Source: a virus
Reading direction: 5' to 3' (one strand)
Virus record (IMG/VR): IMGVR_UViG_3300045988_183134
Coordinates: 64,001 to 128,000 of that record
Length of the DNA: 64,000 bases
The number at the start of each line of letters is the position of its first letter. The stretch's first letter is position 1. Under the pieces are notes generated by a model. It was given only the letters and a program-made list of their open reading frames with translations. It ran no database searches and was not told the DNA's origin. A program made the position numbers and the translations under genes. This document shows positions 29,777 through 64,000 of the stretch, piece by piece.

Positions 29777-29820
29777 TTTTCGCCCGTTTACCGTATCGGT
29801 AGGCGGACTTTGCTTTTTTG

Positions 29821-29957
29821 TTGACGCCGCTTGCGAACGGCATAAACTTTTAGTTGTACGATAGATATCATCTACCAGGCGCGTTTTGCGTTCGTACAAT
29901 TCACAGTCTCGCACATTGAAGGCAGATTCACTTTCGGGTGAGTCTGCCTTTTTTTGT
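29821..29957 (+). promoter_or_regulatory. promoter-leader module, copy 13 (right copy of the 145-bp direct repeat)
   Basis: Near-identical to copy 12 (4 substitutions and 1 indel by eye). Confidence 0.75.
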
Positions 29958-29988
29958 TTGCGCGAACACAAGAAAGGAATTAACAACA

Positions 29989-31067: not shown

Positions 31068-31073
31068 TTTTGC

Positions 31074-31191
31074 TTGACCGCGCTTGCGGAATGAATAAAA
31101 TCAGTCTTGTACGATGGATACCAGCAAATCCATAGTTATTCACAACCTGTAGCAGAAAGCAGACTCATCTTCGGATGGGCCTGCTTTTTTT
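31074..31191 (+). promoter_or_regulatory. promoter-leader module, copy 14 (diverged)
   Basis: TTGACC-N4-TTGCGGA-N5-TAAAAT (31074-31101); CTTGTACGATGGATACC (31107); TTATTCACAACC (31137); GCAGACTCATC..GATGGGCCTGC plus T7 (31159-31191). Confidence 0.65.
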
Positions 31192-34355: not shown

Positions 34356-34611
34356 AAAAAATATAAAAATCATAAATACAGGAGAGCGAATCGCAGTGAC
34401 AGATTTACTTGGCAATATGATGCGGAATGTGCGAATTGACGAATAAAGAAGAGCGCACGCCCCGTCTATAGCCGTAAGGCTTAGGCGGGGTTAGCTCGTG
34501 TTTAAGGACAAGAATCAGGATTTTTTATTTTCCGTTCTGATAAAGGTATTGCCTGGTTGTGCGAACTGGATACTGTAAAATTATAGTGAACCGCAAGGGA
34601 GGTGAGCCACT

Positions 34612-35721: not shown

Positions 35722-35860
35722 CCACAGACGAACAGTACGGTCAGGACGACCGAATCTTAAAGTCTGTGGAGAGCGAACCTCTATCAAGGGCTGCGGCCTG
35801 CGGTAAGCTCGCTCTATGAAGCAGAAATCCATACTGAGTAACGGGGCAACCCGTGAAAAG
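35600..35860 (+). ncRNA. candidate TnpB omega/reRNA (overlaps the tnpB 3' end; boundaries approximate)
   Basis: This is the position expected for TnpB guide-RNA scaffolds. Helices: CCACAGAC/GTCTGTGG (35722-35770), AGAGCGA/TCGCTCT (35770-35815). Confidence 0.45.
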
Positions 35861-35878
35861 TTGGAAGTCCGAATCATT

Positions 35879-49256: not shown

Positions 49257-49331
49257 CAATAAGCCGTTGCCTATGCTGGGGGCAGCGGCTTCTTCTCTTT
49301 GCTACGCAGTGCTGTCGGCCTCACAAATCTC

Positions 49332-49459
49332 TTGCAATATTGTGCGAACAGCATATCATAAAAAATGTACGATAGATAACAGCCTTTTGGCCCAATGCGT
49401 ACAATTCATATTCTGCAGCTAAATTAGCAGACTCACCAATTCGGTGGGCCTGCTTTTTT
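49332..49459 (+). promoter_or_regulatory. promoter-leader module, copy 15
   Basis: TTGCAA-N4-GTGCGAA-N5-TATCAT (49332-49359); ATGTACGATAGATAAC (49365); GCGTACAATTCATATTC (49397); GCAGACTCACC..GGTGGGCCTGC plus T6 (49427-49459). Confidence 0.75.
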
Positions 49460-49541
49460 ATTTGCAAGAAAGGAGTGCCGACAGTTTTCTGTCAACCATT
49501 TCCGAAAAAACAAATATCAATCAAAAGAAAGGACAAATTGT

Positions 49542-50084
49542 ATGTTTAACGCAACCTGCCTAATCAAGACCGACATCGATACCGTGAACAAATGTATGGG
49601 GCAAAATCCCTACAATCCTGAGACGTTTCTTCAGAACTTTGCGTCTCGTCTGACATCTTTCAATGACCCCCTTCTCAATATGTACCCAACATCCGAGATT
49701 GCAGGAAACATCGAAGACGAGGATGTTATTCTGGGCCTTCGCGAACCGCAAAAACTCATTGAATGGGCGAAAACCATGAAGGAACGCACGCAGTGCATGG
49801 CAATGGCTGAGTTCAGTGCAGCATTGCAGAAGCATAAAGCAGAAGGCATCGATATCACAAAGCCGATGTATACCTGCCTGCGCTCCATTGAAATGGATTC
49901 CAACGAATCTTATCTTCTTCGCTACGCCGCTGAACTGCTCGACAACCATCCAAACCCGGAATGCGGTGAGCTGTTTTATGACGGCGACTCCTGGAAGTGT
50001 TTCCCAAACGGTTTTCAGCTGAAAGACATCGAAGCTCATGCTGAGGACTACATCATCATTCCGGGGCTGTTCTATGACGACTGA
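49542..50084 (+). CDS. hypothetical protein (180 aa)
   Basis: GAAAGGA RBS. Confidence 0.55.
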   Translation: MFNATCLIKTDIDTVNKCMGQNPYNPETFLQNFASRLTSFNDPLLNMYPTSEIAGNIEDEDVILGLREPQKLIEWAKTMKERTQCMAMAEFSAALQKHKAEGIDITKPMYTCLRSIEMDSNESYLLRYAAELLDNHPNPECGELFYDGDSWKCFPNGFQLKDIEAHAEDYIIIPGLFYDD

Positions 50085-50104
50085 TTGAAAACGAAAGGAA
50101 TTTT

Positions 50105-50341
50105 ATGGACTGGAAATTTATCATGTGTCTGCTCGTTATGTGCTCCACCACCGTCTGGAAGCTTCTGGAAATCCTCACCTACGGTGAGATTCAGGTCCGG
50201 CAGGTGGATGACATCATGATGATGTATATGACATTTACCATCTACGCCGCCTATAAGGCTGGCATGGCGGTTCAGGCCAAAAAAACGAAGCAAACCGAAG
50301 AAAATATCGCAACCACCTCTGATAAGCAAAAAGGAGAATGA
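50105..50341 (+). CDS. small membrane protein (78 aa)
   Basis: AAAGGA RBS; two hydrophobic helices. Confidence 0.55.
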   Translation: MDWKFIMCLLVMCSTTVWKLLEILTYGEIQVRQVDDIMMMYMTFTIYAAYKAGMAVQAKKTKQTEENIATTSDKQKGE

Positions 50342-50345
50342 CTCT

Positions 50346-51113
50346 ATGTATCAGCTGCAAAACATCGATTATCTGTACCGTATCTCGACTATGACCGGCT
50401 CGTCCAAGCTCGTTACCGTTCAGGCGGACAGAGACTCCCATGACCTGAACGATAAGCATTTCGTGATGCTGAATCTGTGCCGGGCAATCGTGAATTTCGC
50501 CAATGAAGGGCACGTGATTTCAGCTGTGTATGAACTGGAACCAGATGGGACCTCCAAGCGGGTTGCCTATCGCGGATTGCCGGAATACCAGGAAGCACTC
50601 AAAGACCCTGAACCGGATGTGATTGTTGCAAAATTTGCAACGAACTTTTCGTCCGGCGCTTCGTTCGCTTCACAATGCCGCGTGAATCAAAAGAGCCGTG
50701 AAGTGTTCGACATTGAGGCTTCCGGGACTCCTTCTGATAATGATGATATTTCTGAACGCCTTGTTTCGCTGGATGACGGCGAACACTGGCATCAGGTTCA
50801 CTGCATTGATGATATCCTCGATGAATACGACGATGATATTGACAATGCTTTGGATGCTCTGTATTCCATCGAAGCTCACGGTGATATCGACGGGGACTAC
50901 TGGTGTACTACCACCGATAAAGACCTGAACCGAACCATTCGTGAATGCCGCACCGAAATTCTCGTTGATGCGCTGCTTGCTCGCGGCTCTGAGGCGGTAG
51001 AAGAATTTCTCGGTTATCCCGTGAATATGTCGGAAGCCGAATGCGTGCTCGAAGAATACCTGAATAACCTGTCCGATGAGGATTTGGCAAACGCCTTCTT
51101 CGAAACTCTTTGA
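50346..51113 (+). CDS. hypothetical acidic protein (255 aa)
   Basis: AAAGGAG RBS. Confidence 0.6.
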   Translation: MYQLQNIDYLYRISTMTGSSKLVTVQADRDSHDLNDKHFVMLNLCRAIVNFANEGHVISAVYELEPDGTSKRVAYRGLPEYQEALKDPEPDVIVAKFATNFSSGASFASQCRVNQKSREVFDIEASGTPSDNDDISERLVSLDDGEHWHQVHCIDDILDEYDDDIDNALDALYSIEAHGDIDGDYWCTTTDKDLNRTIRECRTEILVDALLARGSEAVEEFLGYPVNMSEAECVLEEYLNNLSDEDLANAFFETL

Positions 51114-51123
51114 GTTACCGCAC

Positions 51124-51254
51124 TTGCGCAGATGTGCGAACAGGATATTATAAAAATTGTACGATAGATACCATCTACTAGGCGCGTTTTGCGTTCGTAC
51201 AATTCATAATTTCGCTTGAAGGCGGACTTCCCATACCGGGAGGCCCGCCTTTTT
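51124..51254 (+). promoter_or_regulatory. promoter-leader module, copy 16
   Basis: TTGCGC-N4-GTGCGAA-N5-TATTAT (51124-51151); TTGTACGATAGATACC (51157); TCGTACAATTCATAATT (51195); GGCGGACTTCCC..GGGAGGCCCGCC plus T5 (51221-51254). Confidence 0.75.
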
Positions 51255-51282
51255 GCATCAAAAATTACAGGAGGTAAATACC

Positions 51283-51912
51283 ATGTTCAACATTATGAAT
51301 CTCAACAACATCGAAAACATTTTCTACTGGACCGACAATAACGGTGCTGTTTCTCTTCCCGGAGATACTGCCCTAACGTATCGGACCAAATCGGACCTTC
51401 CTCGGTTCGTGGCTGCCGTTTACAGTGCGCTGAACACCGATAGTGGTGTTTCAGAACGTGTTGTCACCCTGAACGGCCACTGCGGTTTGCTGTTGGATGT
51501 ACTCTACGATAAGGACTGGGTATCGGAGACTTTCTCTAATCTCAACTGTGAGATTCCAGACGAAATCATCATGAACCTGTTCGGCGCTGCCTTGCCGTGT
51601 CTGGCACAGATAATGTGGAATGATATCCACACCTCACTTAACAAGACGGAACATTGTTCGAACTGCCCCGACCTCAGAATTTTGGTTGGCCAAAATACAG
51701 ATAAGGATGGTCATGAGCTTTGCTTCTTCATTCCCTTTGGCGGCACAGAGTTTGACCATGATGAACGAATCAGGTGCGCACATGCGGCTCGCGTTGTAGA
51801 GAATTATCTAGACAATGTGGCTTATGGCAAAAAGGTAGAAACATATATTCGTGGACTCGTTGAAGCTGCCAGTATTGACGGCGCTATTTCTGAAAGCAAC
51901 ACGGAGGTGTGA
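51283..51912 (+). CDS. hypothetical protein (209 aa)
   Basis: CAGGAGG RBS before ATG 51283. Confidence 0.6.
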   Translation: MFNIMNLNNIENIFYWTDNNGAVSLPGDTALTYRTKSDLPRFVAAVYSALNTDSGVSERVVTLNGHCGLLLDVLYDKDWVSETFSNLNCEIPDEIIMNLFGAALPCLAQIMWNDIHTSLNKTEHCSNCPDLRILVGQNTDKDGHELCFFIPFGGTEFDHDERIRCAHAARVVENYLDNVAYGKKVETYIRGLVEAASIDGAISESNTEV

Positions 51913-51915
51913 GCT

Positions 51916-51996
51916 ATGCTTATCAAGAATATCAAGTGGGATACGGACGGCGACATGGAGGCTCTTGCCTCCTTACCAATAAAAAGGGTGCCGTAA
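51916..51996 (+). CDS. 26-aa ORF MLIKNIKWDTDGDMEALASLPIKRVP, possibly the truncated 5' part of a small gene
   Basis: GGAGG 8 nt upstream. The IKWDTDGD..LP opening resembles, from memory, small 50-70-aa proteins on Firmicutes mobile elements. The sequence changes character right after it. Confidence 0.35.
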   Translation: MLIKNIKWDTDGDMEALASLPIKRVP

Positions 51997-52107
51997 ATGT
52001 AGAGTTCAAAGTACCTGCAAAAAATGGTCAAAAATCTGCAAGCCTTAAAAAGCTTAAAATCGTAAAGACGACAGATTCCATGCATTCTGCATGGGAAAAA
52101 ATATCTT

Positions 52108-52240
52108 AATCATTTAAAGAAAGGAGTAGCAGGGTATTTGTGCTAACTGAGTACACTTCAAATTGCCTCTTGGTTAGCGCATTCCTCACCGCCTAAGTCA
52201 AGTCGCAAGCGACTATAGACGGTGTACCCTGCGCACATAA
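52108..52240 (+). repeat. copy of the iscB-2 3' end plus right-end hairpin region, without an iscB gene
   Basis: Collinear blocks shared with 61287-61400: TCATTTAAA, GAAAGGAG, AGCAGG, GCGCATTCCTC, CCTAAG, CTATAGA, CATAATT. Hairpin CACCGCCTAAGTC..GACTATAGACGGTG at 52187-52224. Confidence 0.6.
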
Positions 52241-52241
52241 T

Positions 52242-52706
52242 TTGATGAAATGGAATGTATTTTGTAACGAAAACGCTCCTTATCGTATTTATTATCGTCA
52301 AATTGAGATTGATGGATATGAGATGTATGTCATGTTTCCATTGCCAATGACTGGCATGGAATGTGGCTGGGCAGTATCGCATGGCGCAACTACGGCAGCT
52401 ACCATTCAGGAAGCGGTTCAAAAGTTTTATCCCTTTATGATAGAGTATATCTGCGATAAAGAGGATTCCGACAACGATACGCAACAATACATTCTCAAAA
52501 ACCTCAATTCTCTTGGCAGCTCTGTGGATTTTTGGGGCAGAAAAAATGACCGTCAACATGTCATTGACGGCATGAGCGCAACGCAGAAATCGCAGCTTTT
52601 ATGCTATATTCTGCGAAATCATGAAGTCTTTGGCAAGATGACTTGCCGTGACTGGAAGAATTGGCTGCTGGATGACGCTGAACCTCAGTTTGGTATCTGG
52701 TTCTGA
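52242..52706 (+). CDS. hypothetical protein (154 aa)
   Basis: ORF starts 10-13 nt after the hairpin structure (TTG 52242 or ATG 52245), with no adjacent SD. Confidence 0.5.
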   Translation: MMKWNVFCNENAPYRIYYRQIEIDGYEMYVMFPLPMTGMECGWAVSHGATTAATIQEAVQKFYPFMIEYICDKEDSDNDTQQYILKNLNSLGSSVDFWGRKNDRQHVIDGMSATQKSQLLCYILRNHEVFGKMTCRDWKNWLLDDAEPQFGIWF

Positions 52707-52901
52707 TGGCATTAAAAACGGCAGGCAACATCCCGGCCCTGAACAACAAGAAGGACAAGCGTGCTTCGTTTCCGGTCGTCGTGCATCGGGAAGTTTTACC
52801 CTCAAAAAGCTTGACGGCACGCGTATTTCCAAAGGTGTAACATTTAAAAAATTGCGGCTATTAGAGCCTGCAACAAATTATCTAATAGAAAGGATGTGAA
52901 C

Positions 52902-52943
52902 GGGCAATTCCTCCCACGACTAAAGTCGCGGGTCTCCTTGCCC
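52902..52943 (+). repeat. compact variant of the same hairpin element
   Basis: GGGCAA-TTCCTCCCACGACT-aa-AGTCGCGGGTCTCC-TTGCCC, preceded by AAAGGA and followed 6 nt later by ATG 52950. Confidence 0.5.
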
Positions 52944-52949
52944 TGATTT

Positions 52950-53918
52950 ATGAAAGCTGAAATTAAATTTGCAAACACAAGCAATGGACCCAAAGCCTTT
53001 GTCAAGACTTTTGACGATGATTGGACTCCTATGAGCACGCCGCTCAAGGCATACAAAAAAGACATGCGCAGTATCAAGCCTGCAGGTAACTACGAAGAAG
53101 GAAAGGACTACATGGTAGCCGTCAGCCCTTGGGTTCTTGAAGCATTTCTGAAAGCCAATCAGATTGATTATGTTCAGCTGATTCGCGGCCAGGACCTCAA
53201 GAATCCGCCCGTTGGCAGCATTCGGTATGCGAACGAGAAGGAAGTCGTCTGGTACGAGTATTCTTCCGCAACCACCACACGCCGCTGCACGGACTTGTCC
53301 CGCGCAAAAAGCTTTGTTCAGGAATGGGTCAATCTTGATTGTCCTACACTCAAACGCTTTAGCACGAATCAGAAAGTGCTTTCCGTGAACGGCTTTGGCG
53401 CTGCGGTTCCGCTGTTTGAAAGCCCGCTGGTCGATACCTCCTATGTCGATACTGTCATCGCAGACGATATTGAAGACAAGGAAATCGAAGGACTACGCAA
53501 GCATCTGAACCCGGATGGCGTAATCTCGCAGCTGCTGAACAATGTTCAGAAAGCGAGAGCCGAGAAGGGAATCGATGAAGTGGAAAGCCGCGTCAAGCAG
53601 GTCGAAACCCAGATTCGCCTTTTCCTGCGCACTCCGGAAATCGAAAACAAAATCAAAGACATCGAAACTGCTCATCTCAATGAGGAGGGCGGCTTTGACT
53701 GTGGTTTCATTTTCTGGTATCCGAAAGCTGATTCTCAGCTCGAAAAGGACATGAGCCTGCTGGTCGGTGCCAACAGGCGCAAGCTGAGCTGGCTCGATAT
53801 TGCGGTTCCGACTTTCAGCCAGAGCGTTAATGTTCAGAGATACGGCGCAGAGCTTGTCAAGAAACTCGCAAAAGAGCGTCTTGGCATTGAACTCTATTAT
53901 CATTCGGAGCTCGACTAA
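52950..53918 (+). CDS. hypothetical protein (322 aa)
   Basis: Long ORF with no adjacent SD (see the hairpin finding). Confidence 0.55.
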   Translation: MKAEIKFANTSNGPKAFVKTFDDDWTPMSTPLKAYKKDMRSIKPAGNYEEGKDYMVAVSPWVLEAFLKANQIDYVQLIRGQDLKNPPVGSIRYANEKEVVWYEYSSATTTRRCTDLSRAKSFVQEWVNLDCPTLKRFSTNQKVLSVNGFGAAVPLFESPLVDTSYVDTVIADDIEDKEIEGLRKHLNPDGVISQLLNNVQKARAEKGIDEVESRVKQVETQIRLFLRTPEIENKIKDIETAHLNEEGGFDCGFIFWYPKADSQLEKDMSLLVGANRRKLSWLDIAVPTFSQSVNVQRYGAELVKKLAKERLGIELYYHSELD

Positions 53919-53919
53919 T

Positions 53920-54600
53920 ATGCCTGACATGAGAATTTCATTGATGAAAGGGGAGACAATCCCCAGAGATATCAAGGGCCGCAGAATCATTTGCTGCTTT
54001 TGCAATGACAAGGGGACTTGGGATACCAAGACTCTTGAGAAATTTGCAAAGAGATTCCCGAAAGCAAAAGAGTGGTACTTACATAAGCTGCCAGAACAGC
54101 TTCGGTATCCCGGTCAGGTTCTATTCTGTCCGGGCAATAACGAGAACACGATTGTGGCAATTATGATTTGCAGTACTGAAACCGCCGACAAGTACGGCTC
54201 GAAAATTCAGTTCCCGTATCTGTACGGGTGTCTCTTGCAGGCGATGGTCAAGGCCAAACAAGCTGAGGCTTCCGTCATCGTATCAAAGCTCGGAACCGAT
54301 ATGGTCGAATGGCAGTGGAGAAAACTTATTTGGATTCTGAACCATGCGGCGGAAATGAATGAAGGGGTAACGGCAATCGCAGTTTCACCCTATGATTTGT
54401 CTGATGTGTTCGTTGAACCCAAAAAGAAGAAGTCCACTTCCAGAAAGACGAAAGCCAAAAAAGATTTGGAAGATTCCGAAGAGACCGATAGCGAAAAGGA
54501 CAACTGGGATGGTCCTCAAGAAAACGGCAGAGACCAACAGCTCAGCATGCCTGATGAAAAAGAAGACAAGAAATATAGTAAATACGATAATTTGCGCTAA
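53920..54600 (+). CDS. hypothetical protein (226 aa), weak macro-domain-like pattern, charged C-terminal tail
   Basis: ATG lies 1 nt after the upstream stop. IICCFCNDKGTWD..FAKRFPKAKEWY..PGQVLF..IVAIMICST..VSKLGTDMVEWQW loosely follows macro-domain secondary-structure spacing, but the glycine-rich loop is not conserved. Confidence 0.45.
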   Translation: MPDMRISLMKGETIPRDIKGRRIICCFCNDKGTWDTKTLEKFAKRFPKAKEWYLHKLPEQLRYPGQVLFCPGNNENTIVAIMICSTETADKYGSKIQFPYLYGCLLQAMVKAKQAEASVIVSKLGTDMVEWQWRKLIWILNHAAEMNEGVTAIAVSPYDLSDVFVEPKKKKSTSRKTKAKKDLEDSEETDSEKDNWDGPQENGRDQQLSMPDEKEDKKYSKYDNLR

Positions 54601-54607
54601 CTTACGA

Positions 54608-54635
54608 GCTCCTGCAGCAATGCAGGGGCTTTTTT
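54608..54635 (+). terminator. intrinsic terminator
   Basis: CTCCTGCA-gcaa-TGCAGGGG followed by cT6. Confidence 0.7.
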
Positions 54636-54686
54636 GTTGTCTTTCTACAAAAATTTCATTTTTACAGTTTCGAGGCTCTTTTTTGC

Positions 54687-54714
54687 TTGCCTCACTGTGC
54701 GAATCAAAGATAAT
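54687..54714 (+). promoter_or_regulatory. heptamer-type promoter (TTGCCT-N4-GTGCGAA-N5-GATAAT)
   Basis: Standard spacing, upstream of the surface-protein module. Confidence 0.55.
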
Positions 54715-54771
54715 GAAGACAACAGCCTAAAAGTGGCACTAAAAAGTAGCAATCAAGAAAGAGGTTATAAC

Positions 54772-55608
54772 ATGGCAACTAAGTTTTATCTTGCCGAAAT
54801 TCCGGATGATTTTCCGGCAACCAACGTCAAATTTGAAAATATGACCAAGCCACTGTTGGCGATTCCGGCCAAGATGGTTGATGGGAAGCCGATTACGATT
54901 GTCGGCTACATCAATGCTGGCCAGAAAAAATACAAAGCAAACGATTACGGCTTTGTTGAGTTCAATGACAACGGGGCCGATTTTGCGCAGTTCAAAGACG
55001 CCAATATGGATACTCGGTATTCCGTGAGAGAAAAGGTTTCCGGTGATATTCTCGGATACCTGCCGCTTGAAACCGGGGAACTCGTTGGCATTGTGCGTGA
55101 GAAGGAAAAACCGATTCTTCTTCTGATTATCGCGGTGATTGCTGCTCTCGTGCTGCTCGTTGCCCTTATCACTGCAAGCCTTTATAAAATGGTGAACAAG
55201 CCCCTTGATGGCAGCGGCAGCGATGCCAGCTCCGCAAGCAGCGAAATCGTGATTGCTGACGGCGAAGCGTATGACGGGACGATGGACAACGGCAAAACCG
55301 ATTCCGAGGAGATGCGATTCATCGAATTCCCGGCATTCACGACCATCTATGTGAGCCCTGACAGTACCGTGGACCTGGTGAACCCGGAAAGCAACCATGT
55401 CTACTTCAAATATACGATTCTTGAGAACGATGAAGTGCTCTATGAATCCGATTACATTGCCCCAGGCCAGAAATACGCCTGGCAGGCATCGGATTACATT
55501 ACCGGGGCAGGAGAGCACGCTGTGGTGTTCTCGGTATCTACTGTCGGTGTAGATGACCAACAGCCGCGCAATGGCGCTGAGTTTGCGGTCACGGCCGTTG
55601 TATCTTAA
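54772..55608 (+). CDS. single-pass membrane protein (278 aa)
   Basis: AGAGG RBS before ATG 54772. Central TM helix (PILLLIIAVIAALVLLVALITASLY). Confidence 0.6.
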   Translation: MATKFYLAEIPDDFPATNVKFENMTKPLLAIPAKMVDGKPITIVGYINAGQKKYKANDYGFVEFNDNGADFAQFKDANMDTRYSVREKVSGDILGYLPLETGELVGIVREKEKPILLLIIAVIAALVLLVALITASLYKMVNKPLDGSGSDASSASSEIVIADGEAYDGTMDNGKTDSEEMRFIEFPAFTTIYVSPDSTVDLVNPESNHVYFKYTILENDEVLYESDYIAPGQKYAWQASDYITGAGEHAVVFSVSTVGVDDQQPRNGAEFAVTAVVS

Positions 55609-55746
55609 CTGGGCTGAATTGCGCGACAAGCGCATTTTGGTAAACTCGCAAGGGAGATAAATAGTAAAAGACAAGGGCTCGAATCAGCTGATGGCCTTGC
55701 ACATGGCTGATTTTGTGTCCGCAATCAACGAAGGAGGTTTCTGAAG

Positions 55747-56184
55747 ATGAAACTCGCCAAAGCTATGTCGATGGCCCTCGCTTGTGCGATGGCCGCGACT
55801 ATGTGTGCAACCTCCGCTTTTGCTGCAACTTCCGGCAGCACGAAGGTTAATGCCACTGTTACCCCGTCCTACACCCTGACCGTCCCTGAATCCATTACCC
55901 TGACCAACAACAAAGGCGGGAGTGGCACCTACACTGGTACGATTCCCGTCAACGTAAAGGGCGACATCGGTGAAGGTCAGTCCGTGACCGTTACTTCCAC
56001 TGCGCCTATCATGAAGTGCTCTGGTTCAAAGAACGTTACGGCTTCCTTTACCGGCACTCCTAAGAAGAGCTGGACCCGTATGGAGACTTCTGGTCAGGGC
56101 ACGACTGACAACTACGGTCTGTCTGCAGTCCTGACTCCTGGTGTTTGGGAAGGCACTGCTACCTTCTCCTGCGCTCTGGCATAA
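55747..56184 (+). CDS. secreted protein, paralog family member A (145 aa)
   Basis: Signal peptide ..SAFA/AT. Family motifs: SYTLTVPESITL, GSGTYTGTIPVNVKGD, PKKSWTRME, TPGVWEGTATFSCALA. Confidence 0.7.
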   Translation: MKLAKAMSMALACAMAATMCATSAFAATSGSTKVNATVTPSYTLTVPESITLTNNKGGSGTYTGTIPVNVKGDIGEGQSVTVTSTAPIMKCSGSKNVTASFTGTPKKSWTRMETSGQGTTDNYGLSAVLTPGVWEGTATFSCALA

Positions 56185-56769: not shown

Positions 56770-57204
56770 ATGAAGACATCAAAGAAAGTTCTGGCAGCCC
56801 TTCTGGCGATTTGTCTCAATACCGGAACTGCTCTGGCCGAAGTGGATAAGACTGCGACAACGGCGCTTGTTGCCGATGTGACTTCCGGGTATACGATTAC
56901 GGTGCCGGAAACTGTTGCATTGTCGAAGAGTACGGACGGGTCCGGTACTTATACGGGTATAATCCCGGTAAATCTCAAAGGCAGCGTTGGCAGTAACGAA
57001 AAAGTGACGGTGACTACCACAGTGACCGATATGACCGATGCGTCTGGGACTAAGGCTCCCGTGACATTCACGGCAAAACCGAAAACGGTCTGGTCATACT
57101 CCGACTTGCTGAATGGCGGAACTACAAGCAATTATGTGGTTTCCGCGACACTGACAGCAGGCAGCTGGAAGGGTACAGCTACATTTTCCTGCACGATGTC
57201 ATAA
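56770..57204 (+). CDS. secreted protein, paralog family member C (144 aa)
   Basis: GAGGAGG RBS and signal peptide. GYTITVPETVAL, GSGTYTGIIPVNLKGS, PKTVWSYSD, TAGSWKGTATFSCTMS. Confidence 0.7.
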   Translation: MKTSKKVLAALLAICLNTGTALAEVDKTATTALVADVTSGYTITVPETVALSKSTDGSGTYTGIIPVNLKGSVGSNEKVTVTTTVTDMTDASGTKAPVTFTAKPKTVWSYSDLLNGGTTSNYVVSATLTAGSWKGTATFSCTMS

Positions 57205-57232
57205 TGCCAAATTCGAAAGGATGTGAAAATCT

Positions 57233-59653
57233 GTGAACATCAAAAAAGCGGCTGCGAGTTTTCTATTTATGATTTTTGCCATGGTATGTAATGTGTCCAT
57301 GGCATTTGCAAGCTGGGGTGGCATGGGCTACAAAAACTGCGTGCTGTGCGGCGCATTGGTAACGCCTATGCCTACATATGGTGGCACACAGAAGTACACT
57401 GAATTCTACAACTGTGAAGAAGTTGAGGGCCTAACATCGAGCACAACTCAACGATATGCCCTGAAAAATATGTACGTTGTCAGCAACGCAGATGGCGTTA
57501 TCTGCACAAATTGCGTTGAACGTATTATCAGCGAACACAAAGGCGGCACGGGCGGTGAAGTTGATGAATCAGTGTACATCATTACCGTTCCCGAATCAGT
57601 GACACTAAGCAATGAAAACGGTGGCACTGGAGATTATGCTAACACCGTTTCTATCAAGGCAACGGGCAAACTGCTGACAAACCAGAAAGTATTTTTTAAT
57701 ACCTCTGCTCCGACCATGCACCGCGACGGCAGCACCGATGTTGTCTGCACCGCCACTGCTACCACTGCAACAGAATGGGACGCAACTGCTGTAAAAGGGA
57801 AAACTGCACAAACCGATTATTCCGTGACTGCGCACCTCACTCCAGGCGAATGGACCGGCAATATGGTGTTTTACGCTTCGGTAGGAGATACCTATACAGT
57901 TGAGGTAGGAGACAATTCTGTATTGCTTTCTCCTGCTTATGAGGATAAAACTCATATTGTATTTGAATCCGATAACCCCTCCGTGGCTTCCATTAGTTCG
58001 GACGGCCATATTATCGCTTCGGCAATCGGAACTGCGAACATCACGAAGACCGCATATGACAGTACCGGGACTCGCGTCATCTATTCGTCCAAATACACCA
58101 TCAATGTCACGGCGCAGATGCCGTTGATGGATGTGAGCCGTCTTGCTTCTGTATTGACGACTCTTTCCTCTCAGGGAAAAAACATCACCGTTATTTCGTT
58201 CGGCAATTATACAGTTCCGGGCAATGCAACGACCTATGACGTATCCGGCCAGGGTGACAAATCGATTGTCGCGTATGTTCCGACCACGATGTATGGCGGC
58301 TGGTGGTGGGGCGTTCAGAATGGCACAGAGCTTCGAGTGACAGATACGAACCGTGATATGGTGGCGTTTGCTTCCGGTAACAGCGTTTGCTTCAAAAGCG
58401 GTGCGTCTGACACTTCTACGGTTTTTGACAATATCAAGACCATTAACTTTGATGCAGTTGACACGACTCGCGTGACATCCGCTGCTTACGCATTCTATAA
58501 CATGAAGTCACTAACTACAATTACTGGACTCAGCCGTTGGGATACCAGTAAAATCACGACGATGAACAGCATGTTCAAGGGATGCACAGGACTTAAAAGC
58601 CTTGATTTCAGCAGCTTTAACACCAAAAATGTCACGGATTTCTCCAGTATGATGTATGGATGCACGGGTCTTTCGAAAATCACGGTCGCGGATACTTTTG
58701 CGACAGCTTATCTCCCGACTCCGGGCTTTTCCACGGGCTTTACCTACGTGAGCAGCAAGATGGGTCTTACCATTGCCGGAAACCCTTCCAGCGCTTTGAG
58801 CAGCTATAATTTCACTTCCGATAACCGTACCGTGACATACGATACTTCTACCGCATCTGATGATGAGTCCGATAATGAATTTCCGAACGAGGATTCCGAC
58901 AGCACCGTGGCACCTGCGCCGACAGCTTCGATGAACGTTTCAAACCTGGCGCAGGCAATGACGCAGCTCAAGGAATCCGGGACTGAAATCAAGGCGATTT
59001 CCTTTGGCGGCTATCAGGTCCCGGAATCGGCCAAAGTATTTGATGTCTCTGGAATCGGCTCCAGTACAATTCTGGCTTTTGTAAAAGAAGGCGAGAACCG
59101 GCTCTACGTCACGAATTCGGCTGGCGGAACACTTGTCTTTGGTGAGGGAAACAGCATTTCTTTTGATGAAAATGAGGCATTTGCCGACATTGAAAACATC
59201 GAGTATCAGAACGTTGATACTTCGCAGGTGACTTCTGCGGCATCTGCTTTTTCCGGGATGAAGAAGCTCACCAGCATTGGTGGATTAGAGAACTGGAACA
59301 TGTCGAACATCACTACGATGAACAGGATGTGTTATCAGTGTGAGGCTTTGCAGTCTATTGCCGGGATGGAGAAGTGGGATACCTCGAAAGTAACTGATAT
59401 GAGTGAAGCTTTTGCCGGTTGTCTTTCTCTCTCGGATGCTTCGCCGACAGATGGCTGGGATACCAGCAGCGTGACGAACAAAGAGAACATGTTTGCTGGC
59501 GCACTGTGCGAAAAAGCACCGGAGATAGCCAATGATACAGAGAACACTGATACTGATGCGGATTCGTCTGAGGGAAATTCCGAGCAAGCTGAAAGCAAAG
59601 CAAAAAACAAAGAGGGTCAACAACCCCCGCCTAAACCGGTTCACCGGTTATAG
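57233..59653 (+). CDS. large surface protein (806 aa): signal peptide, CxxC..CxxC module, family domain, Big_2-like domain, two BspA/DUF285-type LRR blocks
   Basis: GTG start. CVLCGA..CTNCVE. YIITVPESVTL..TPGEWTGNMVFYASV. NPSVASISSDGHIIASAIGTANITK. Repeats such as LSRWDTSKITTMNSMFKGCTGLKSLD and LENWNMSNITTMNRMCYQCEAL. The last 10 codons (residues PPPKPVHRL and part of the preceding Q) and the stop lie in the IS-like hairpin 59625-59659. Confidence 0.7.
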   Translation: MNIKKAAASFLFMIFAMVCNVSMAFASWGGMGYKNCVLCGALVTPMPTYGGTQKYTEFYNCEEVEGLTSSTTQRYALKNMYVVSNADGVICTNCVERIISEHKGGTGGEVDESVYIITVPESVTLSNENGGTGDYANTVSIKATGKLLTNQKVFFNTSAPTMHRDGSTDVVCTATATTATEWDATAVKGKTAQTDYSVTAHLTPGEWTGNMVFYASVGDTYTVEVGDNSVLLSPAYEDKTHIVFESDNPSVASISSDGHIIASAIGTANITKTAYDSTGTRVIYSSKYTINVTAQMPLMDVSRLASVLTTLSSQGKNITVISFGNYTVPGNATTYDVSGQGDKSIVAYVPTTMYGGWWWGVQNGTELRVTDTNRDMVAFASGNSVCFKSGASDTSTVFDNIKTINFDAVDTTRVTSAAYAFYNMKSLTTITGLSRWDTSKITTMNSMFKGCTGLKSLDFSSFNTKNVTDFSSMMYGCTGLSKITVADTFATAYLPTPGFSTGFTYVSSKMGLTIAGNPSSALSSYNFTSDNRTVTYDTSTASDDESDNEFPNEDSDSTVAPAPTASMNVSNLAQAMTQLKESGTEIKAISFGGYQVPESAKVFDVSGIGSSTILAFVKEGENRLYVTNSAGGTLVFGEGNSISFDENEAFADIENIEYQNVDTSQVTSAASAFSGMKKLTSIGGLENWNMSNITTMNRMCYQCEALQSIAGMEKWDTSKVTDMSEAFAGCLSLSDASPTDGWDTSSVTNKENMFAGALCEKAPEIANDTENTDTDADSSEGNSEQAESKAKNKEGQQPPPKPVHRL

Positions 59654-59659
59654 ACGGGG

Positions 59660-59915
59660 CTTGCGGGGCAACCCGTAAGCCCGGTTGATTAGCCTAAGTC
59701 TGCTGCTCCAGCGGCAGGAAACTACGTTGTGTACTAATAATATAGGCACCTTACTCATGCTCCACAAGTGGTGAGCTCTGCGGATGTTTGTTAAAAATCT
59801 CTGAGGGTAGGAGACGTGCAAACATCATACCGAAAGGTAAAACAGTACAACAACATTGGCGATGTGGACCACGGGGCGCAAGCCCTGACTTATCGATTCA
59901 TTATTTACGAAAGGA
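59660..59915 (+). ncRNA. candidate IscB omega-RNA scaffold (boundaries approximate)
   Basis: Directly 5' of iscB-2. Helices: GGGCTTGCGGG-GCAA-CCCGTAAGCCC (59657-59682), CTGCTGC-tcca-GCGGCAG (59700-59717), GGGGC-GCAA-GCCCT (59873-59886). TTATCG..GAAAGGAG 3' end as in copy 1. Confidence 0.5.
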
Positions 59916-59924
59916 GTACCTTGC

Positions 59925-61295
59925 ATGAGCACTTGCGTTTGTGTTCTCAGCAACAGTGGTGAACGCTTAATGCCTACCATCCGTCTTGGCAAGGTACGCC
60001 GACTCTTGAAAGACGGAAAAGCAAAAATCGTCAAGCATCATCCTTTTACTATTCAACTGCTGTATGACAGCAAAACGAACACACAACCCATCGAAATCTG
60101 CGAAGACGTGGGCTACAACTACATCGGCATCAGCGTAAAAAGCGAATCCCACGAATATGTGTCTGCCCAGTATGATACATTACAGGATGAGAAAGCCTGC
60201 CACGACAGTTGTCGTAAGTTGCGCCGAACCCGCAGAAATAGACTGCGCTACCGTAAACCGCGCTTCGATAACCGCAAGCGCGGCGAAGGTTGGCTTGCAC
60301 CTTCTCTGGAACATAAGAAGCAGCTGAATATCCGTCTTATCGAACGGTATGTATCTGTAATCCCGATTACTCATGCAACGGTTGAAGTTGGTTCTTTTGA
60401 CACAATGTTGCTGCAAGCCATCCAGAAAGGCAAATCAAAACCGGAAGGTGTAGACTACCAGAAAGGTCCCCGCTACAACTTGGCAACTTTGCGTGAGGCA
60501 GTGTTCTACCGTGATAATTACACCTGCCAAGTTTTTGGACGCAAAATCGCGGATGGTGCCATTTTACATATGCACCACATGTTCTACTGGAAAGGAAGAC
60601 ACGGCTACCAGCTTGATGAGTTGGTTACAGCGTGTGAAAAATGCCACACGCCAGCAAATCATCAAAAAGGCGGCAAGCTCTTCGGTTTTGGCGAAGATAA
60701 AGAATTTGCCAATCTTTCAGGTGCAGCGTTTATGAACGCTGTTTGCTGGCAGATAGTAGATGCACTGCACGCCACATACGGTAAGGAATTTGTGACCATC
60801 ACTTATGGTGCGATGACAAAGGAAAAGCGAATCATTCTTGGCATAGAGAAAACCCACAACAACGATGCGTATGCAATGGGAGATTATCATCCGGTACATC
60901 GTTGCGTGTTTAGGCATTACCAAAAACGACGCAGAAACAATCGTGTGCTGGAAAAATTCTACGATGCCACTTATATCGACACCCGCACCGGTAACAAAGC
61001 AAAAGGTAAAGAACTTTTTAACGGCAGAATTAGCCGTAATCACAAAAAGAATTCTGAAGACCTGCACAAGTACCGCAGCAAAAAGGTGTCGAAGGGGCGT
61101 CGCTCTATAAGAAGACAGCGCTATGCAATTCAGCCATACGACACTGTGCGTCTCGAAAGTAAAACATACATTACAAGCGGGTGCCATAACAAAGGCACAA
61201 GACTTTTGATTCCTGCTAATGGGAAAAGTAAGTCCGTAGCAATTTCCAAAGTTCAAGTTGTTTGCCATGCGGGAGCATGGATACAAATCATTTAA
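59925..61295 (+). CDS. iscB: IscB-like nuclease (456 aa) with a divergent HNH insert
   Basis: ERLMPT (PLMP-like), RuvC-I ICEDVGYNYIG, Arg-rich LRRTRRNRLRYRKPRFDNRKR, RuvC-II ATVEVGSFD, RuvC-III HNNDAYAMG. The HNH region YTCQVFGRK..LHMHHMF..QLDELVTACEKCH lacks the first CxxC pair and the conserved Asn. Confidence 0.75.
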   Translation: MSTCVCVLSNSGERLMPTIRLGKVRRLLKDGKAKIVKHHPFTIQLLYDSKTNTQPIEICEDVGYNYIGISVKSESHEYVSAQYDTLQDEKACHDSCRKLRRTRRNRLRYRKPRFDNRKRGEGWLAPSLEHKKQLNIRLIERYVSVIPITHATVEVGSFDTMLLQAIQKGKSKPEGVDYQKGPRYNLATLREAVFYRDNYTCQVFGRKIADGAILHMHHMFYWKGRHGYQLDELVTACEKCHTPANHQKGGKLFGFGEDKEFANLSGAAFMNAVCWQIVDALHATYGKEFVTITYGAMTKEKRIILGIEKTHNNDAYAMGDYHPVHRCVFRHYQKRRRNNRVLEKFYDATYIDTRTGNKAKGKELFNGRISRNHKKNSEDLHKYRSKKVSKGRRSIRRQRYAIQPYDTVRLESKTYITSGCHNKGTRLLIPANGKSKSVAISKVQVVCHAGAWIQII

Positions 61296-61404
61296 ATGTT
61301 GAAAGGAGGTAAGCAGGAAATGCTGTATCTTAGTCTTTTCTAAGAAGCGCATTCCTCCCCACCTAAGCCTTACGGCTATAGATGGGGTGTCCTGCTCCAT
61401 AATT

Positions 61405-62103
61405 ATGAACATGAAGGCTATCAAGCGCTTTGCTATGCTTTTGGCAGTGCTGTCTCCTTTTCTTTTGAATGTGTCGTTCGGATTTGCCGATACCGCTACA
61501 CGGACATGTTCGGTCTGTGGGCAGAAATTCACTGTGACAACCCCGGCCGCTGATGACGCCAAAACATTCGAGGCGTACAACAAGGTAAACTCGATTAAAG
61601 GCGTTGAGTCGGATAAGAGCGCTACTTATACCGCAATTACGGATGCAAATGTCTATGCAACGACCATTAACGGAAAGCCTCTGTGCTCGAATTGTCTGAG
61701 TACGATGGGCGCTGCTACTTCTACCGGTAAAGGATTGCCGAAAACGGCTTCCACTCAGCTGCTTGCGAGCGCAACGGCGGTCTATACGATTACGGTTCCC
61801 GAAACTGTTAAGCTGACAGGCGTTGACAGTGGCCCTGGCTCATATACGGCTGACATCACCATGACTTTGAAAGGTGATGTCGAGGAGAATGCGGTGATTG
61901 TGGTATCTGTGGACGGTGGAACCATGACCAACACTGCGGGCAAAACCGCTGCTGTCACGGTATCCAATCGGACCAAAAGCGAGTGGTCCCGAGCAGATTT
62001 GCTGAACGATGGAACGAGTGCAACTTGCAAAGTCTCTGCGGAGCTTGACCCCGGGCACTGGACCGGCACGGCAACATTCAGCTGCGAGAAACAGTATAAG
62101 TGA
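61405..62103 (+). CDS. secreted protein, paralog family member D with N-terminal CxxC..CxxC module (232 aa)
   Basis: Signal peptide ..SFGFA/DT. CSVCGQ..CSNCLS. VYTITVPETVKL..DPGHWTGTATFSCEKQYK. The start (61405 or 61411) has no adjacent SD and follows the IS right-end structure. Confidence 0.6.
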   Translation: MNMKAIKRFAMLLAVLSPFLLNVSFGFADTATRTCSVCGQKFTVTTPAADDAKTFEAYNKVNSIKGVESDKSATYTAITDANVYATTINGKPLCSNCLSTMGAATSTGKGLPKTASTQLLASATAVYTITVPETVKLTGVDSGPGSYTADITMTLKGDVEENAVIVVSVDGGTMTNTAGKTAAVTVSNRTKSEWSRADLLNDGTSATCKVSAELDPGHWTGTATFSCEKQYK

Positions 62104-62130
62104 TGAATTTCTTGGAAAGGAGGGAACTGT

Positions 62131-62655
62131 ATGCGTTTGAAAGCTGTAGGGGCAGAAATTCTTGCCGCGCTGACGCTTGCCTGTCCAGTCTTAGCGTTCT
62201 CTGAACCAATTGGTTCGGATGACGCTGTCATAGATGCCGATGATACGATTGCGGCAGATACACCCGACTCGGATTCTAATGACACCGCCTGGCTGAGCGC
62301 TTCCAAGGATACTTCAACGCAGGTCACAGCGGAAGTGGACAGCTTTTATACATTGACCGTTCCGGAAGAAATCACGCTGAATGGTTCGGATGGTACTGGC
62401 ATCCAGACTGGCACAATTCCGGTCACTTTAATGGGGGATATCCCTCTCAAGGGAACTGTTCAAGTCAAAACCACTGCTACGCCTCTGCAGGCGAAAGGCT
62501 CTGTAGATGTGCCTATGACCATCGCAACACCAAAGGTTGAATGGAATCGCACTGAGATGCTCGGAGACGGAACGAGTTCAGACTATTCCGTAAGCGCAGT
62601 TCTTGCTCCTGGCGACTGGACTGGCACAGTGACGTTTGAATGCTTGGTGCAATAA
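62131..62655 (+). CDS. secreted protein, paralog family member E (174 aa)
   Basis: AAAGGAGGG RBS and signal peptide. FYTLTVPEEITL..GTIPVTLMGD..PKVEWNRTE..APGDWTGTVTFECLVQ. Confidence 0.7.
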   Translation: MRLKAVGAEILAALTLACPVLAFSEPIGSDDAVIDADDTIAADTPDSDSNDTAWLSASKDTSTQVTAEVDSFYTLTVPEEITLNGSDGTGIQTGTIPVTLMGDIPLKGTVQVKTTATPLQAKGSVDVPMTIATPKVEWNRTEMLGDGTSSDYSVSAVLAPGDWTGTVTFECLVQ

Positions 62656-62673
62656 ATGCCAACAAATCTTATA

Positions 62674-62703
62674 CCGCTTGCCCTTTTGGGTAGGCGGCTT
62701 TTT
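62674..62703 (+). terminator. intrinsic terminator
   Basis: CCGCTTGCCC-tttt-GGGTAGGCGG followed by cT5. Confidence 0.65.
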
Positions 62704-62772
62704 GCTAGGTATTTGTTGTGCGTTCTGAACACGGCAGCTATGGCCTATCTTGTTTCCGGCATAAAAAGCAGG

Positions 62773-62827
62773 CACAATATATTGTGTTTTGGTATTGCAA
62801 TATACCATATATTGTGGTACAATATAT
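62773..62827 (+). promoter_or_regulatory. promoter (TTGCAA-N17-TACAAT) embedded in three ACAATATAT-type palindromic operator-like sites
   Basis: CACAATATATTGTG (62773-62786, perfect palindrome), CAATATAccaTATATTG (62798-62814), ACAATATAT (62819-62827). -35 at 62795-62800 and -10 at 62818-62823. Confidence 0.55.
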
Positions 62828-62829
62828 CT

Positions 62830-63127
62830 ACTGGCTCAAATGATAGCAAAGAACCTAAAGTTTGAGCATTTTCGTGTATGGCTATGAGACCGCTTCCTTC
62901 TACTTGAAGATAATATGAAATCATGTCAGCGGTTTCGCTCTCCGTCACGGCTCGAGAACATAACAATACGGCTATATATCCGCTTCCTTCATTTCTAGAA
63001 GAACAAGGAAGTCGGCTCGCATTTTTTGTGCTGCTGACTTCAACACGTTAGCGGATATGCTTTCCGTATCTATTACGTGTCTCATCCACCCGTGTCGAGT
63101 TTTTCTCGGCGCGGGATTTTTGTTTTG
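62830..63127 (+). promoter_or_regulatory. long structured leader with two terminator-like hairpins
   Basis: GAGACCGCT/AGCGGTTTC helix (62887-62937). CCGCTTCCTT..AAGGAAGTCGG plus T6 (62980-63027). CCCGTGTCGAG-ttttt-CTCGGCGCGGG plus a T-rich run (63089-63126), immediately before the RBS. Confidence 0.5.
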
Positions 63128-63143
63128 TTAGGAGGTCATTTGA

Positions 63144-64000
63144 ATGCTGACTGTTTATGATTTTAACCGCGTCACGTTTGCACATCATCGTGGCATCGTA
63201 CCACCCATGCCCGCACAAGAAGGGAAGAAAGCGGTGGAGAAACGCTATGTCTGTTCAGCGAACATGAAATTGATGGAATACGGCTATATTATGGCGCGAG
63301 ACCTCTTTGATGCCTGCTGCAAGGCCGAATACAATGATTTCCTCAAGACCTGGTCTGCGCTGTATGACTGTGTCACGGAGGATGGCAAGGCAATTTCTCA
63401 GACTTCTCCCATCTGGCCGAATTTCCCGGACGATGCGATGAAAGCCGACCTTGTGGACCTGTATGTTGTCAACTTCCTCAATTATCTGACCTGCGGCGAA
63501 TGGCAGCCAGACTTTGACCCAACAAAATTTTGCCCGGCACTGGACCGCAGCCATCTTCTTGCTGTGAAACAGATTCCGGCGTGTGATGAGGAGGAAATCT
63601 ACCGCTATTCCGTACAGAGCATTACCGGGCATTCTCCTCTGTCTCCTGACGAGGCGTCCTGCGTTTTCGATACTTTGATGCATGATATTGATTTCACATC
63701 TGAGCTGATGGACCGCATGAAACCCAAGCATATTCCATGCAAGGAAAATCTTGCTCTGTATGTGTCTCGCATTGTCTCTCGTCCCGAATGGCGGGAACAG
63801 GCATGCTTCCGGGATTTCAAGAGCTCTACCGATGTGCTGCGCCTGGCCGCAGCAATGAGCGACCAGGATGTGAGTCTTTCGAAAGCCCCGAAATTCCGGA
63901 ACTTTAAGCGCGGTGAACGTCGTCAGCTGCTGGAACTTCTGGAACACACTGATAAGAACGAGGGCTTTGCATTGCATCCCGAAGAGTTCAAGCGATTGGG
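63144..64000 (+). CDS. hypothetical protein, 5' part (open to the window end; absent from the ORF track)
   Basis: TTAGGAGGT lies 6 nt before ATG 63144. 285 codons with no stop up to position 64000. It explains the antisense shadow ORF 63255..63977. Confidence 0.65.
   Translation, partial: MLTVYDFNRVTFAHHRGIVPPMPAQEGKKAVEKRYVCSANMKLMEYGYIMARDLFDACCKAEYNDFLKTWSALYDCVTEDGKAISQTSPIWPNFPDDAMKADLVDLYVVNFLNYLTCGEWQPDFDPTKFCPALDRSHLLAVKQIPACDEEEIYRYSVQSITGHSPLSPDEASCVFDTLMHDIDFTSELMDRMKPKHIPCKENLALYVSRIVSRPEWREQACFRDFKSSTDVLRLAAAMSDQDVSLSKAPKFRNFKRGERRQLLELLEHTDKNEGFALHPEEFKRL

Follow-up and report, generated by a model that had tools for sequence, protein, structure and literature searches.

IscB transposon ends against host start codons in a phage-like genome, and a possible portable split ribosome-binding site

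A 64,000-nt stretch of viral DNA (the window; positions 64,001 to 128,000 of IMG/VR record IMGVR_UViG_3300045988_183134) carries imperfect hairpins, named H1 to H5, that are very likely the recognition ends for the transposase TnpA of non-autonomous ISC (IscB) elements of the IS200/IS605 group, the window holding one intact element, two remnants and the orphan hairpin H1. The iscB-distal end of these elements stands directly before host start codons and bears a Shine-Dalgarno (SD) motif and a closing helix (P1), which together may act as a split ribosome-binding site (RBS), a function that we hold at roughly even odds. The full proposal, to which we assign a probability of about 0.45, is that an IscB clade whose target-adjacent motif (TAM) starts with ATG has evolved a portable split RBS, the element inserting between a host SD and its start codon with the gene still translated. 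The recurrence of the arrangement in 8 lineages, the near-constant sums of its unpaired linkers and its absence from lineages that do not target ATG make the split RBS plausible.

Relatives of the window elements were gathered as numbered loci with the prefix L, chiefly from viral contigs. The IscB-2 query returned 134 relatives from viral contigs, of which 80 were kept, and two copies of the element were also found in one Lachnospiraceae metagenome-assembled genome (MAG), L081 being a Lachnospiraceae MAG. Megablast of window positions 49500-56000 and 57000-64000 gave zero matches among GenBank phages. By their 3' flanks the elements were sorted into type 1 (that of iscB-2 in the window), types 2a, 2b and 2c (the last inserted in tRNA), the L079 type, the L024 type and type 3.

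The general layout of the end runs from GAAAGGAG through 2-7 nt, the closing helix with its enclosed hairpin(s) and a further 6-12 nt to the element end against the host ATG. In type 1 the iscB stop is followed by GAAAGGAGG, 2 nt, the 5' strand of P1 (AGCAGGA), a second helix (P2), CGCATTCCTC and the TnpA hairpin, and then by 2 nt, the 3' strand of P1 (TCCTGCT), CCATAATT, the element end and the ATG. The order in type 2a is GAAAGGAG, 2 nt, GCAGGGTA paired across the structure with TACCCTGC, 12 nt and ATG; in type 3 it is GAAAGGA, 7 nt, GGGCAA with TTGCCC, 6 nt and ATG. The succession of AAAGGAG, structure and ATG, to which an earlier sequence-only reading of the window had drawn attention, is indeed present before 61405, 52245 and 52950; of the start codons assigned there, 52950 was kept, whereas ATG 52245 is likelier than TTG 52242 and ATG 61411 likelier than 61405. 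The layout recurs in at least eight diverged IscB lineages (types 1, 2a, 2b and 3, L115, L127, L237/L247 and L245) that span 50-97% IscB identity and differ in their hairpins. Among these are L115, L127, L237/L247 and L245, with IscB identities of 67%, 50%, 65-66% and 61%, respectively; L127 has a different hairpin and L245 yet another one. In each of them a called downstream gene begins right at the junction ATG. Added over both sides, the unpaired linkers come to 10-14 nt (2+8, 2+12, 2+11, 7+6, 3+10, 2+10 and 3+10), and in L245, where two positions of the P1 5' strand (AGTGGGAT) have changed, pairing with ATCCTGCT is maintained by two G.U pairs.

Folding predicts a three-way junction for types 1, 2a and 3, L028 and L115; by sequence and predicted folds in the 8 lineages, an SD far from the ATG would be brought by the intervening helix to 10-14 unpaired nt. 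Within the type-2 family, the TnpA hairpin (P3) is paired in 100% of cells with 3 double-changed and 3 one-sided pairs, P2 in 91% with 1 double-changed and 7 one-sided pairs, all of the latter G.U exchanges, and P1 in 87% with 3 one-sided pairs. Pair counts for P1 were limited to this family, and type-1 and type-2 P1 were compared by eye, because MAFFT set the P1 strands of the two types out of register. Covariation of this outer helix, as proposed earlier, therefore stands in part: its inner end differs complementarily between types, whereas the core GCAGG/CCTGC is shared and the type-2 family is without a double change.

A mechanism can be proposed from these observations. A Y1 TnpA acting in trans would mobilise ISC elements in single-stranded form; relative to the strand complementary to iscB, the iscB-distal end would be the TnpA-sense left end, adjoining TTCAT (ATGAA on the iscB strand), and the omega-RNA end the right end, where 9 nt separate the hairpin from the terminus. 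A target of the ATG type would place the element before a host start codon and sever the gene from its own SD, for which the iscB-distal end would compensate with an SD (GAAAGGAG) just after the iscB stop. P1 would then fold away the 70-100 nt in between (P2 and the TnpA hairpin), leaving 10-14 unpaired nt from SD to ATG as a split RBS, and the host gene would stay translated on read-through transcripts.

The junctions are associated with host start codons. Of 23 independent ATG junctions across the viral loci and the window, 15 open an open reading frame (ORF) of at least 100 codons, 2 are at tRNA genes and 6 open short ORFs. Among the ATGRA sites of the window, 24% open ORFs of at least 100 codons (p = 3e-5 for 15/23 against this background) and 5% do so near an ORF start (p = 3e-14). 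As the target starts with ATG, surviving insertions stand directly before host start codons. An SD and spacer close the left flank in L009 (GAGAAGGAGTGTTTTT, element, ATGAAAAAG), L004 (GAGGAGGCAGAC before the element) and L017 (AAAGGGGAATTGAA before the element), which together with the SD in the empty sites of the window gene ORF322 places the insertions exactly between host SD and start codon; the native SD seen in empty sites has been either left upstream of the element or deleted. Lineages without SD and P1 are never at protein starts: L024, L025 and L027, flanked by AAA, are followed by intact SDs or by a promoter module, L079 and L082 precede a tRNA, and the L054 group lies inside a tRNA with its SD (GAAAGAAA) and P1 decayed, a decay that is suggestive but by hand count not significant against ~16% overall divergence. 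The SD-to-ATG block is complete in every deletion remnant in which the junction survives, the deletion in L110 stopping 5 nt before the SD. Type-1 and type-2a ends contain no + strand terminator and no convincing promoter, so the downstream genes would be read from transcripts crossing the element.

Element ends can be identical between contigs (differences at 0/126 nt for the L035-L056 junctions of type 2a and at 0/108 nt for the L012-L094 junctions of type 1) beside host genes that are 13-16% apart, a divergence that starts at the first codons, right from the junction. This indicates that one and the same element has probably spread recently among diverged phages, entering at orthologous sites, a pattern that homing assisted by guide RNA would be expected to produce. 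The ratio of non-synonymous to synonymous substitution rates (dN/dS) of the downstream genes, 0.09-0.26, was considered as proof of translation after insertion and rejected, since identical ends beside diverged genes mean that the divergence predates the junctions, making dN/dS uninformative.

Several observations weigh against the split RBS. The effective spacing of 10-14 nt plus a helix end exceeds the usual optimum, the minimum-free-energy structures of L044, L047 and L127 are without P1, and fold z-scores are modest (-1.2 to -2.9). The P1 core is conserved rather than covarying, the L024 type has the P1 3' strand without a 5' partner, and this strand may serve TnpA. In type 3 the SD-like GAAAGGA falls in conserved codons (IERM and the stop). 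In addition, purifying selection on the downstream genes cannot be dated to after insertion, and the window yielded no cognate TnpA.

The unpartnered 3' strand and the invariant core of P1, together with a hairpin and tail that are clearly of the TnpA type (PMC4810608), would also be expected if the stretch from the iscB stop to the terminus had a role in DNA only, serving TnpA in recognition of the left end and in guiding it to the cleavage site, or protected the 3' end of the iscB mRNA. The SD-like run would then be a by-product or relic, and the downstream genes would be translated poorly, independently of an SD, or not at all. We consider this unlikely, given that the SD and P1 5' strand form an extra block present only in ATG-adjoining lineages, that this block recurs in 8 lineages whose surrounding sequence is unalignable, and that the G.U-only changes in P1 (L245) and P2 fit pairing in the iscB sense, not on the TnpA strand.

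Alternatively, GAAAGGAG could be an mRNA stabiliser of the STAB-SD type, at which a parked 30S subunit would block 5'-to-3' decay by RNase J of a read-through message that has been processed, as by excision of the omega RNA. The motif is a conserved, near-canonical SD 90-125 nt upstream of the start codon, and the hosts are Firmicutes, as the Lachnospiraceae MAG L081 illustrates. However, such a role leaves unexplained the closing helix beside the SD, the near-constant linker sum with its compensating split (7+6 against 2+11) and the use of a start codon without a nearby SD, and it appears distinctly improbable.

Less probable still is a riboregulator in which the CCTCC run of CGCATTCCTCC pairs with the SD, hides it and silences the downstream gene. 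The GGAGG/CCTCC complementarity of type 1 would allow this pairing, but type 2a could form 3-4 bp only, the SD is mostly unpaired in predicted ensembles (0.55-0.98), and the conservation of CGCATTCC(T)C extends to lineages without any SD (L079, L024/25/27). This last observation weakens the sequestration by an anti-SD run that the sequence-only reading had offered as its own alternative.

The assignment to ISC elements rests on borders, target and content. Conservation stops directly to the left of GTCAAC/GTCAAT, 9 nt ahead of the omega-side hairpin, and again 17-23 nt to the right of the iscB-distal hairpin, the flanks beyond being divergent. Right flanks start with ATGAA in type 1 and with ATGA or ATGG in types 2 and 3, and about 23 independent ones open with ATG. 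A precise insertion within the D-loop of tRNA-Ser (GTCCGA, element, ATGATTTAAGG) was recovered, and empty sites are known for two window genes (L083-L093; L106, L109 and L112). ISC transposons carry subterminal imperfect hairpins for a Y1 transposase, target N/ATGA and share their hairpins, in antisense, with TnpB-only elements (PMC4810608). Correspondingly, the tRNA-Ser junction, the empty sites and the flank table document site-specific insertion at N/ATGA or TTCAT without target duplication, types 1 and 3 have subterminal imperfect hairpins of the same design at both ends and no terminal inverted repeats, and the type-1 element combines an IscB with RRXRR and HNH domains and an omega RNA reaching the terminus. 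The D-loop insertions comprise L054, L059, L061, L064 and L067 (about 3001-4530), and L079 and L082 lie 2 nt before the tRNA gene.

Further copies of the elements proved numerous in viral contigs. The search for tnpA found no gene for it in the window: a Pfam scan detected no Y1_Tnp domain in its 110 ORFs of at least 120 aa, and the elements are therefore non-autonomous. A tblastn search of 803 kb with an approximate IS608 TnpA sequence as the probe gave no match. L248 has (region 2605-3361) a gene for a 234-aa Y1_Tnp protein, at 2657-3361, on the strand opposite a 66%-identical iscB, 1.1 kb apart, with an H-like hairpin, CCCCGCCCGATTTCCAAAATCGGACGGGGG, just past its 3' end; this protein is a candidate for the cognate transposase family.

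All five hairpin positions given in the sequence-only reading were correct when the window was re-read. H1 (reverse-complemented), H2, H3 and H4 align as a single imperfect design of 12-14 bp with one bulge and one C.A mismatch, ordered as a 5-bp outer stem, the C.A mismatch, CTAAG against CTATAG with one bulged A, an inner stem and a loop. The window together with 250 fetched loci supplied 22 distinct variants; in their alignment 97.2% of cells are paired and 6/14 pairs are changed on both sides. The covariation score is 0.285 against 0.144 +/- 0.015 after shuffling (0/500 shuffles reach 0.285), and registers slid by 1-3 columns are just 31-46% paired. This confirms the compensatory stem changes reported earlier. 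Read on the strand complementary to iscB, the design has a bulged T in place of the bulged A and a G.T wobble in place of the C.A mismatch, which we take to be the look of IS608-type TnpA hairpins. The asymmetry of CTAAG and CTATAGA, said to be kept in all five copies, holds for H1-H4 but is lacking in H5, which is CCCACGAC-TAAA-GTCGCGGG with one A.C mismatch and belongs to a different element, type 3. It is present at both ends of type-3 elements and was seen in three independent ATG contexts.

H4 forms the first stem of the omega RNA, and H2 is found 62 nt beyond the iscB-2 stop, at the other end of this element; the two hairpins therefore mark the two ends of one iscB unit. HEARO (omega RNA) was the single family found in an Rfam scan of the whole window. 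The HEARO matches cover none of H1, H2, H3 and H5, and an E-value scan of the window returned no second HEARO and left the right ends without any family. Flank divergence among loci and the empty sites L083-L093 set the left terminus of this type-1 element at 59616 (GTCAACAAC), and its other terminus, 61404, immediately precedes ATGAAC; across loci, the type-1 iscB-distal end precedes ~10 unrelated ATGAA flanks. In the empty sites (L083-L093, positions 2300-2500) AAAGAGG runs on into ATGAAGCC, 72 nt (the end of the upstream gene and the SD AAGGAGGGG) precede ATGAACATGAAGG, and the native SD stands 6 nt before the position equivalent to 61411. In the window the element stands between AAAGAGG and ATGAACATG, and the 72 nt are gone. 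The lost segment, comprising the end of a BIG2/LRR/DUF285 gene and the SD of the next gene, lay between two ATGAA target sites, and its loss leaves gene 61411 without a native SD. The upstream BIG2/LRR/DUF285 ORF now stops within the omega RNA, at 59653. Both element junctions are legitimate ATGAA sites, and the simplest history is recombination between copies at the two of them. A mini-ORF behind the type-1 SD (MLYLSLF and a stop) was considered and rejected, its ATG being ACG in L011 and L016-L020 and type 2 having no equivalent.

The region 52108-52240, which had been read as collinear with the iscB-2 right end, survives formal alignment (74% column identity of 52095-52265 with 61280-61425). 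By blastn, window positions 51974-52244 are 88-96% identical to the last ~135 coding nt and right end of type-2a elements. This homology begins sharply at 51974 (IscB codon ~421) in >50 loci, 134 nt further left than the 52108 first proposed, and ends at 52244. The reading frame from 51974 is an IscB C-terminus ending HSAWEKIS and a stop. It is fused to a truncated phage gene (MLIKNIKWDTDGD onward, from 51917) that is intact, with 77 aa, in L081 and L109, and TACC at the junction is shared with both parents. The earlier interpretation as an iscB-less right end or deletion derivative thus agrees with 45 IscB C-terminal codons upstream and microhomology at the junction. H3 in this remnant has a 5-nt AAGTC duplication in its loop. 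The type-3 remnant codes, at 52752-52899, for GRRASGSFTLKKLDGTRISKGVTFKKLRLLEPATNYLIERM and a stop, a type-3 IscB C-terminus that is longer in L097, and is joined via CAAG..GGACAAG microhomology to the first 15 codons of another gene. In L106, L109 and L112 the ORF322 homologue is remnant-free and has its own SD 7-9 nt before the same ATG. Both remnants are 5'-truncated derivatives of microhomology deletions that kept the iscB-distal end.

That H3 and H5 bracket ORF154 as the cargo of a PATE-like non-autonomous element is almost certainly wrong: two hairpins do flank the gene, but both are iscB-distal ends in the same orientation and of different types, each is preceded by IscB C-terminal codons, neither has upstream an omega-side end with which it could form the left and right ends of a palindrome-associated transposable element (PATE) devoid of transposase and nuclease genes, H5 is missing beside ORF322 in L106, L109 and L112, and ORF154 is resident without hairpins in L081, where its N-terminus stands element-free behind its own SD (2930-3000), so the cargo idea fails. 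Rearranged ends also occur elsewhere. In L022 (4371-4490) a type-1 5' half is joined to a type-2b 3' half within the hairpin, giving a mismatched stem; in L110 (2420-2500) a piece of type-2a P2 is joined to a type-3 end; and in L081 (2930-3160) the ORF154 N-terminus is fused to iscB codon ~109.

Table 1. Features of the window and their coordinates.
Feature	Position	Strand	Basis or remarks
H1, orphan hairpin	34460-34490	-	Same design, opposite orientation; confined to the orthologous locus in L129, L146, L161
TnpB ORF	34612-35721		TnpB identified by domain scan
Type-2a iscB remnant, last 45 codons	51974-52109	+	Ends TNKKGAVNVEFKVPAKNGQKSASLKKLKIVKTTDSMHSAWEKIS and stop; blastn, translation
iscB-distal end of type-2a remnant	52110-52244	+	88-96% identity to intact L032, L033, L035, L058
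SD GAAAGGAG	52119-52126		Part of type-2a end
P1 5' strand	52129-52136		Part of type-2a end
P2	52139-52151 with 52169-52181		Part of type-2a end
H3	52187-52224		Part of type-2a end
P1 3' strand	52225-52232		Part of type-2a end
Tail	52233-52244		Part of type-2a end
ORF154, resident phage gene	52245-52706	+	ATG adjoins type-2a remnant end
Type-3 ISC remnant	52752-52949	+	Translation; longer copy in L097; empty sites L106, L109, L112
SD-like GAAAGGA	52888-52894		Part of type-3 remnant
IscB stop	52897-52899		Preceded by IscB C-terminal codons CFVSGRRASGSFTLKKLDGTRISKGVTFKKLRLLEPATNYLIERM
P1	52902-52907 with 52938-52943		Part of type-3 remnant
H5	52913-52932		Part of type-3 remnant
Tail TGATTT	52944-52949		Part of type-3 remnant
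ORF322, host gene	52950-53918	+	ATG adjoins type-3 remnant
Omega RNA (HEARO)	59616-59872	+	RF02033, 95.5 bits against gathering score 83; upstream of iscB
H4	59625-59659	+	First stem-loop of omega RNA; also omega-side subterminal hairpin
iscB-2, 456 aa	59925-61295	+	Pfam RRXRR 2.2e-45, HNH 3.7e-4
iscB-distal end of type-1 element	61296-61404	+	TnpA-sense left end
SD GAAAGGAGG	61301-61309		Part of type-1 end
P1 5' strand	61312-61318		Part of type-1 end
P2	61329-61344		Part of type-1 end
H2	61357-61387		Part of type-1 end
P1 3' strand	61390-61396		Part of type-1 end
Tail CCATAATT	61397-61404		Part of type-1 end
Host gene, secreted protein	61405-62103	+	Start probably 61411
Intergenic module copies	1684-1737, 7949-8002, 11166-11302, 12298-12452, 14246-14390, 16030-16211, 17021-17171, 19094-19281, 21890-22040, 23293-23482, 25249-25363, 28701-28851, 29811-29961, 31073-31126, 49326-49480, 51123-51275

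The orphan H1 is nearly identical to H2, the sole difference being one double change from A-T to G-C. It was considered as the left end of the adjacent tnpB element and rejected, as the upstream end differs in 20 tnpB relatives and H1 itself is confined to the orthologous locus. Among viral contigs, 73 (L164-L236) carry orphan copies of the hairpin design of H1 and H2 with CGTGCGCTCTTC as tail, mostly just upstream of the gene for NAD-dependent DNA ligase and with no adjoining iscB or tnpB. Relatives of the tnpB (window 34612-35721 and 35722-35880; L130-L149) also lie inside SD-to-ATG spacers, with an SD and spacer ending the left flank and an ATG within 6-10 nt in the right flank. Their junctions show short identical runs on both sides (ATTTGG/ATTTGG, AAAACA/AAAACA, GTGTTA/GTGTTA), which are unexpected for IS200/IS605, and the window tnpB copy has lost the canonical left end (GGCTATTCAAC onward). 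The window has a second IscB gene, iscB-1 (4972-6642; ~513 aa from ATG 5104), whose product shares 25% identity with IscB-2; HEARO has no match upstream of this gene, an H-type hairpin is missing downstream, and the gene that follows has an ordinary SD. Finally, the window holds ~16 copies of one intergenic module, with a promoter-like TTGnnn..TGCGAA..ATAAAAT, conserved leader boxes TTGTACGATAGATACCATCT and GCGTTCGTACAATTCACAAT, a GC hairpin with T-run and, last, the SD of the following gene. The arrangement resembles a unit of promoter, leader and terminator under antitermination-type control and has no Rfam match.

IscB and TnpB are the ancestors of Cas9 and Cas12, and how they persist in compact genomes is an open question. 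Self-splicing IStrons are the one known answer to how this is achieved without killing the host. If the proposed reading holds, the SD-plus-bridge would be a second answer, in which a start-codon-targeting transposon brings a replacement RBS whose spacer is its own transposase-binding structure. It would then be a cost-minimising device with a purpose analogous to IStron self-splicing, would explain why deletion remnants keep this end and would provide a natural, large and portable example of a split RBS. Genes that lack an SD just after such ends would probably be real, a warning for annotation, and gene-editing groups would gain several new compact pairs of IscB and omega RNA whose TAM is of the ATGAA type. 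Should the module be non-functional, the locus consists of ordinary ISC elements and debris.

In IS608 and ISDra2, cleavage falls ~19 nt from the left-end hairpin, on its 5' side, and ~10 nt from the right-end hairpin, on its 3' side, without target duplication. The corresponding window distances are 17-23 and 9 nt, and the imperfect hairpin with an extrahelical T on the active strand is shared, whereas sequence and target differ. The ISC transposons (Kapitonov, Makarova and Koonin 2016, PMC4810608) share the IscB ORF, the 5'-GTCA terminus, subterminal hairpins at both ends, insertion at N/ATGA, the lack of TnpA in cis and same-design antisense hairpins elsewhere. The window elements differ as new sub-types in large gut phage-like genomes whose iscB-distal end adds a block of SD, closing helix and P2 undescribed there. 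The hairpins and solo ends are new members of an already described class, and this part is ordinary; the SD-plus-bridge before host start codons is a coherent variant that may be new, being undescribed as far as our literature searches reached. In the Geobacillus stearothermophilus IscB element ISGst5, as here, the TAM TTCAT adjoins the TnpA-sense left end, the omega RNA with its flank-derived guide lies at the other, right end and iscB is co-oriented with the upstream gene (Meers et al. 2023, 10.1101/2023.03.14.532601). The identical elements beside diverged flanks in our dataset fit retention and homing driven by guide RNA. As far as searched, start-codon placement and an SD module are not discussed in that work.

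For the SD block itself, the STAB-SD of cry3A, at about -129 (PMC4113751), is similar in being a strong SD-like run that precedes a start codon by ~100 nt, likewise in Firmicutes, but a STAB-SD initiates no translation and needs no bridging helix. The split RBSs of T4 genes 38 and 25, in which folding shortens the distance from 22 to 5 nt in gene 38 and from 27 to 11 nt in gene 25 (PMC3014915), offer a parallel in layout, an intervening structure restoring SD-AUG spacing, here by prediction from 95-125 nt to 10-14 nt. The likeness is of layout only: in the window the structure is a 70-100 nt multi-helix junction doubling as a transposon end, and the SD comes from the mobile element and the AUG from the host gene that it hit.

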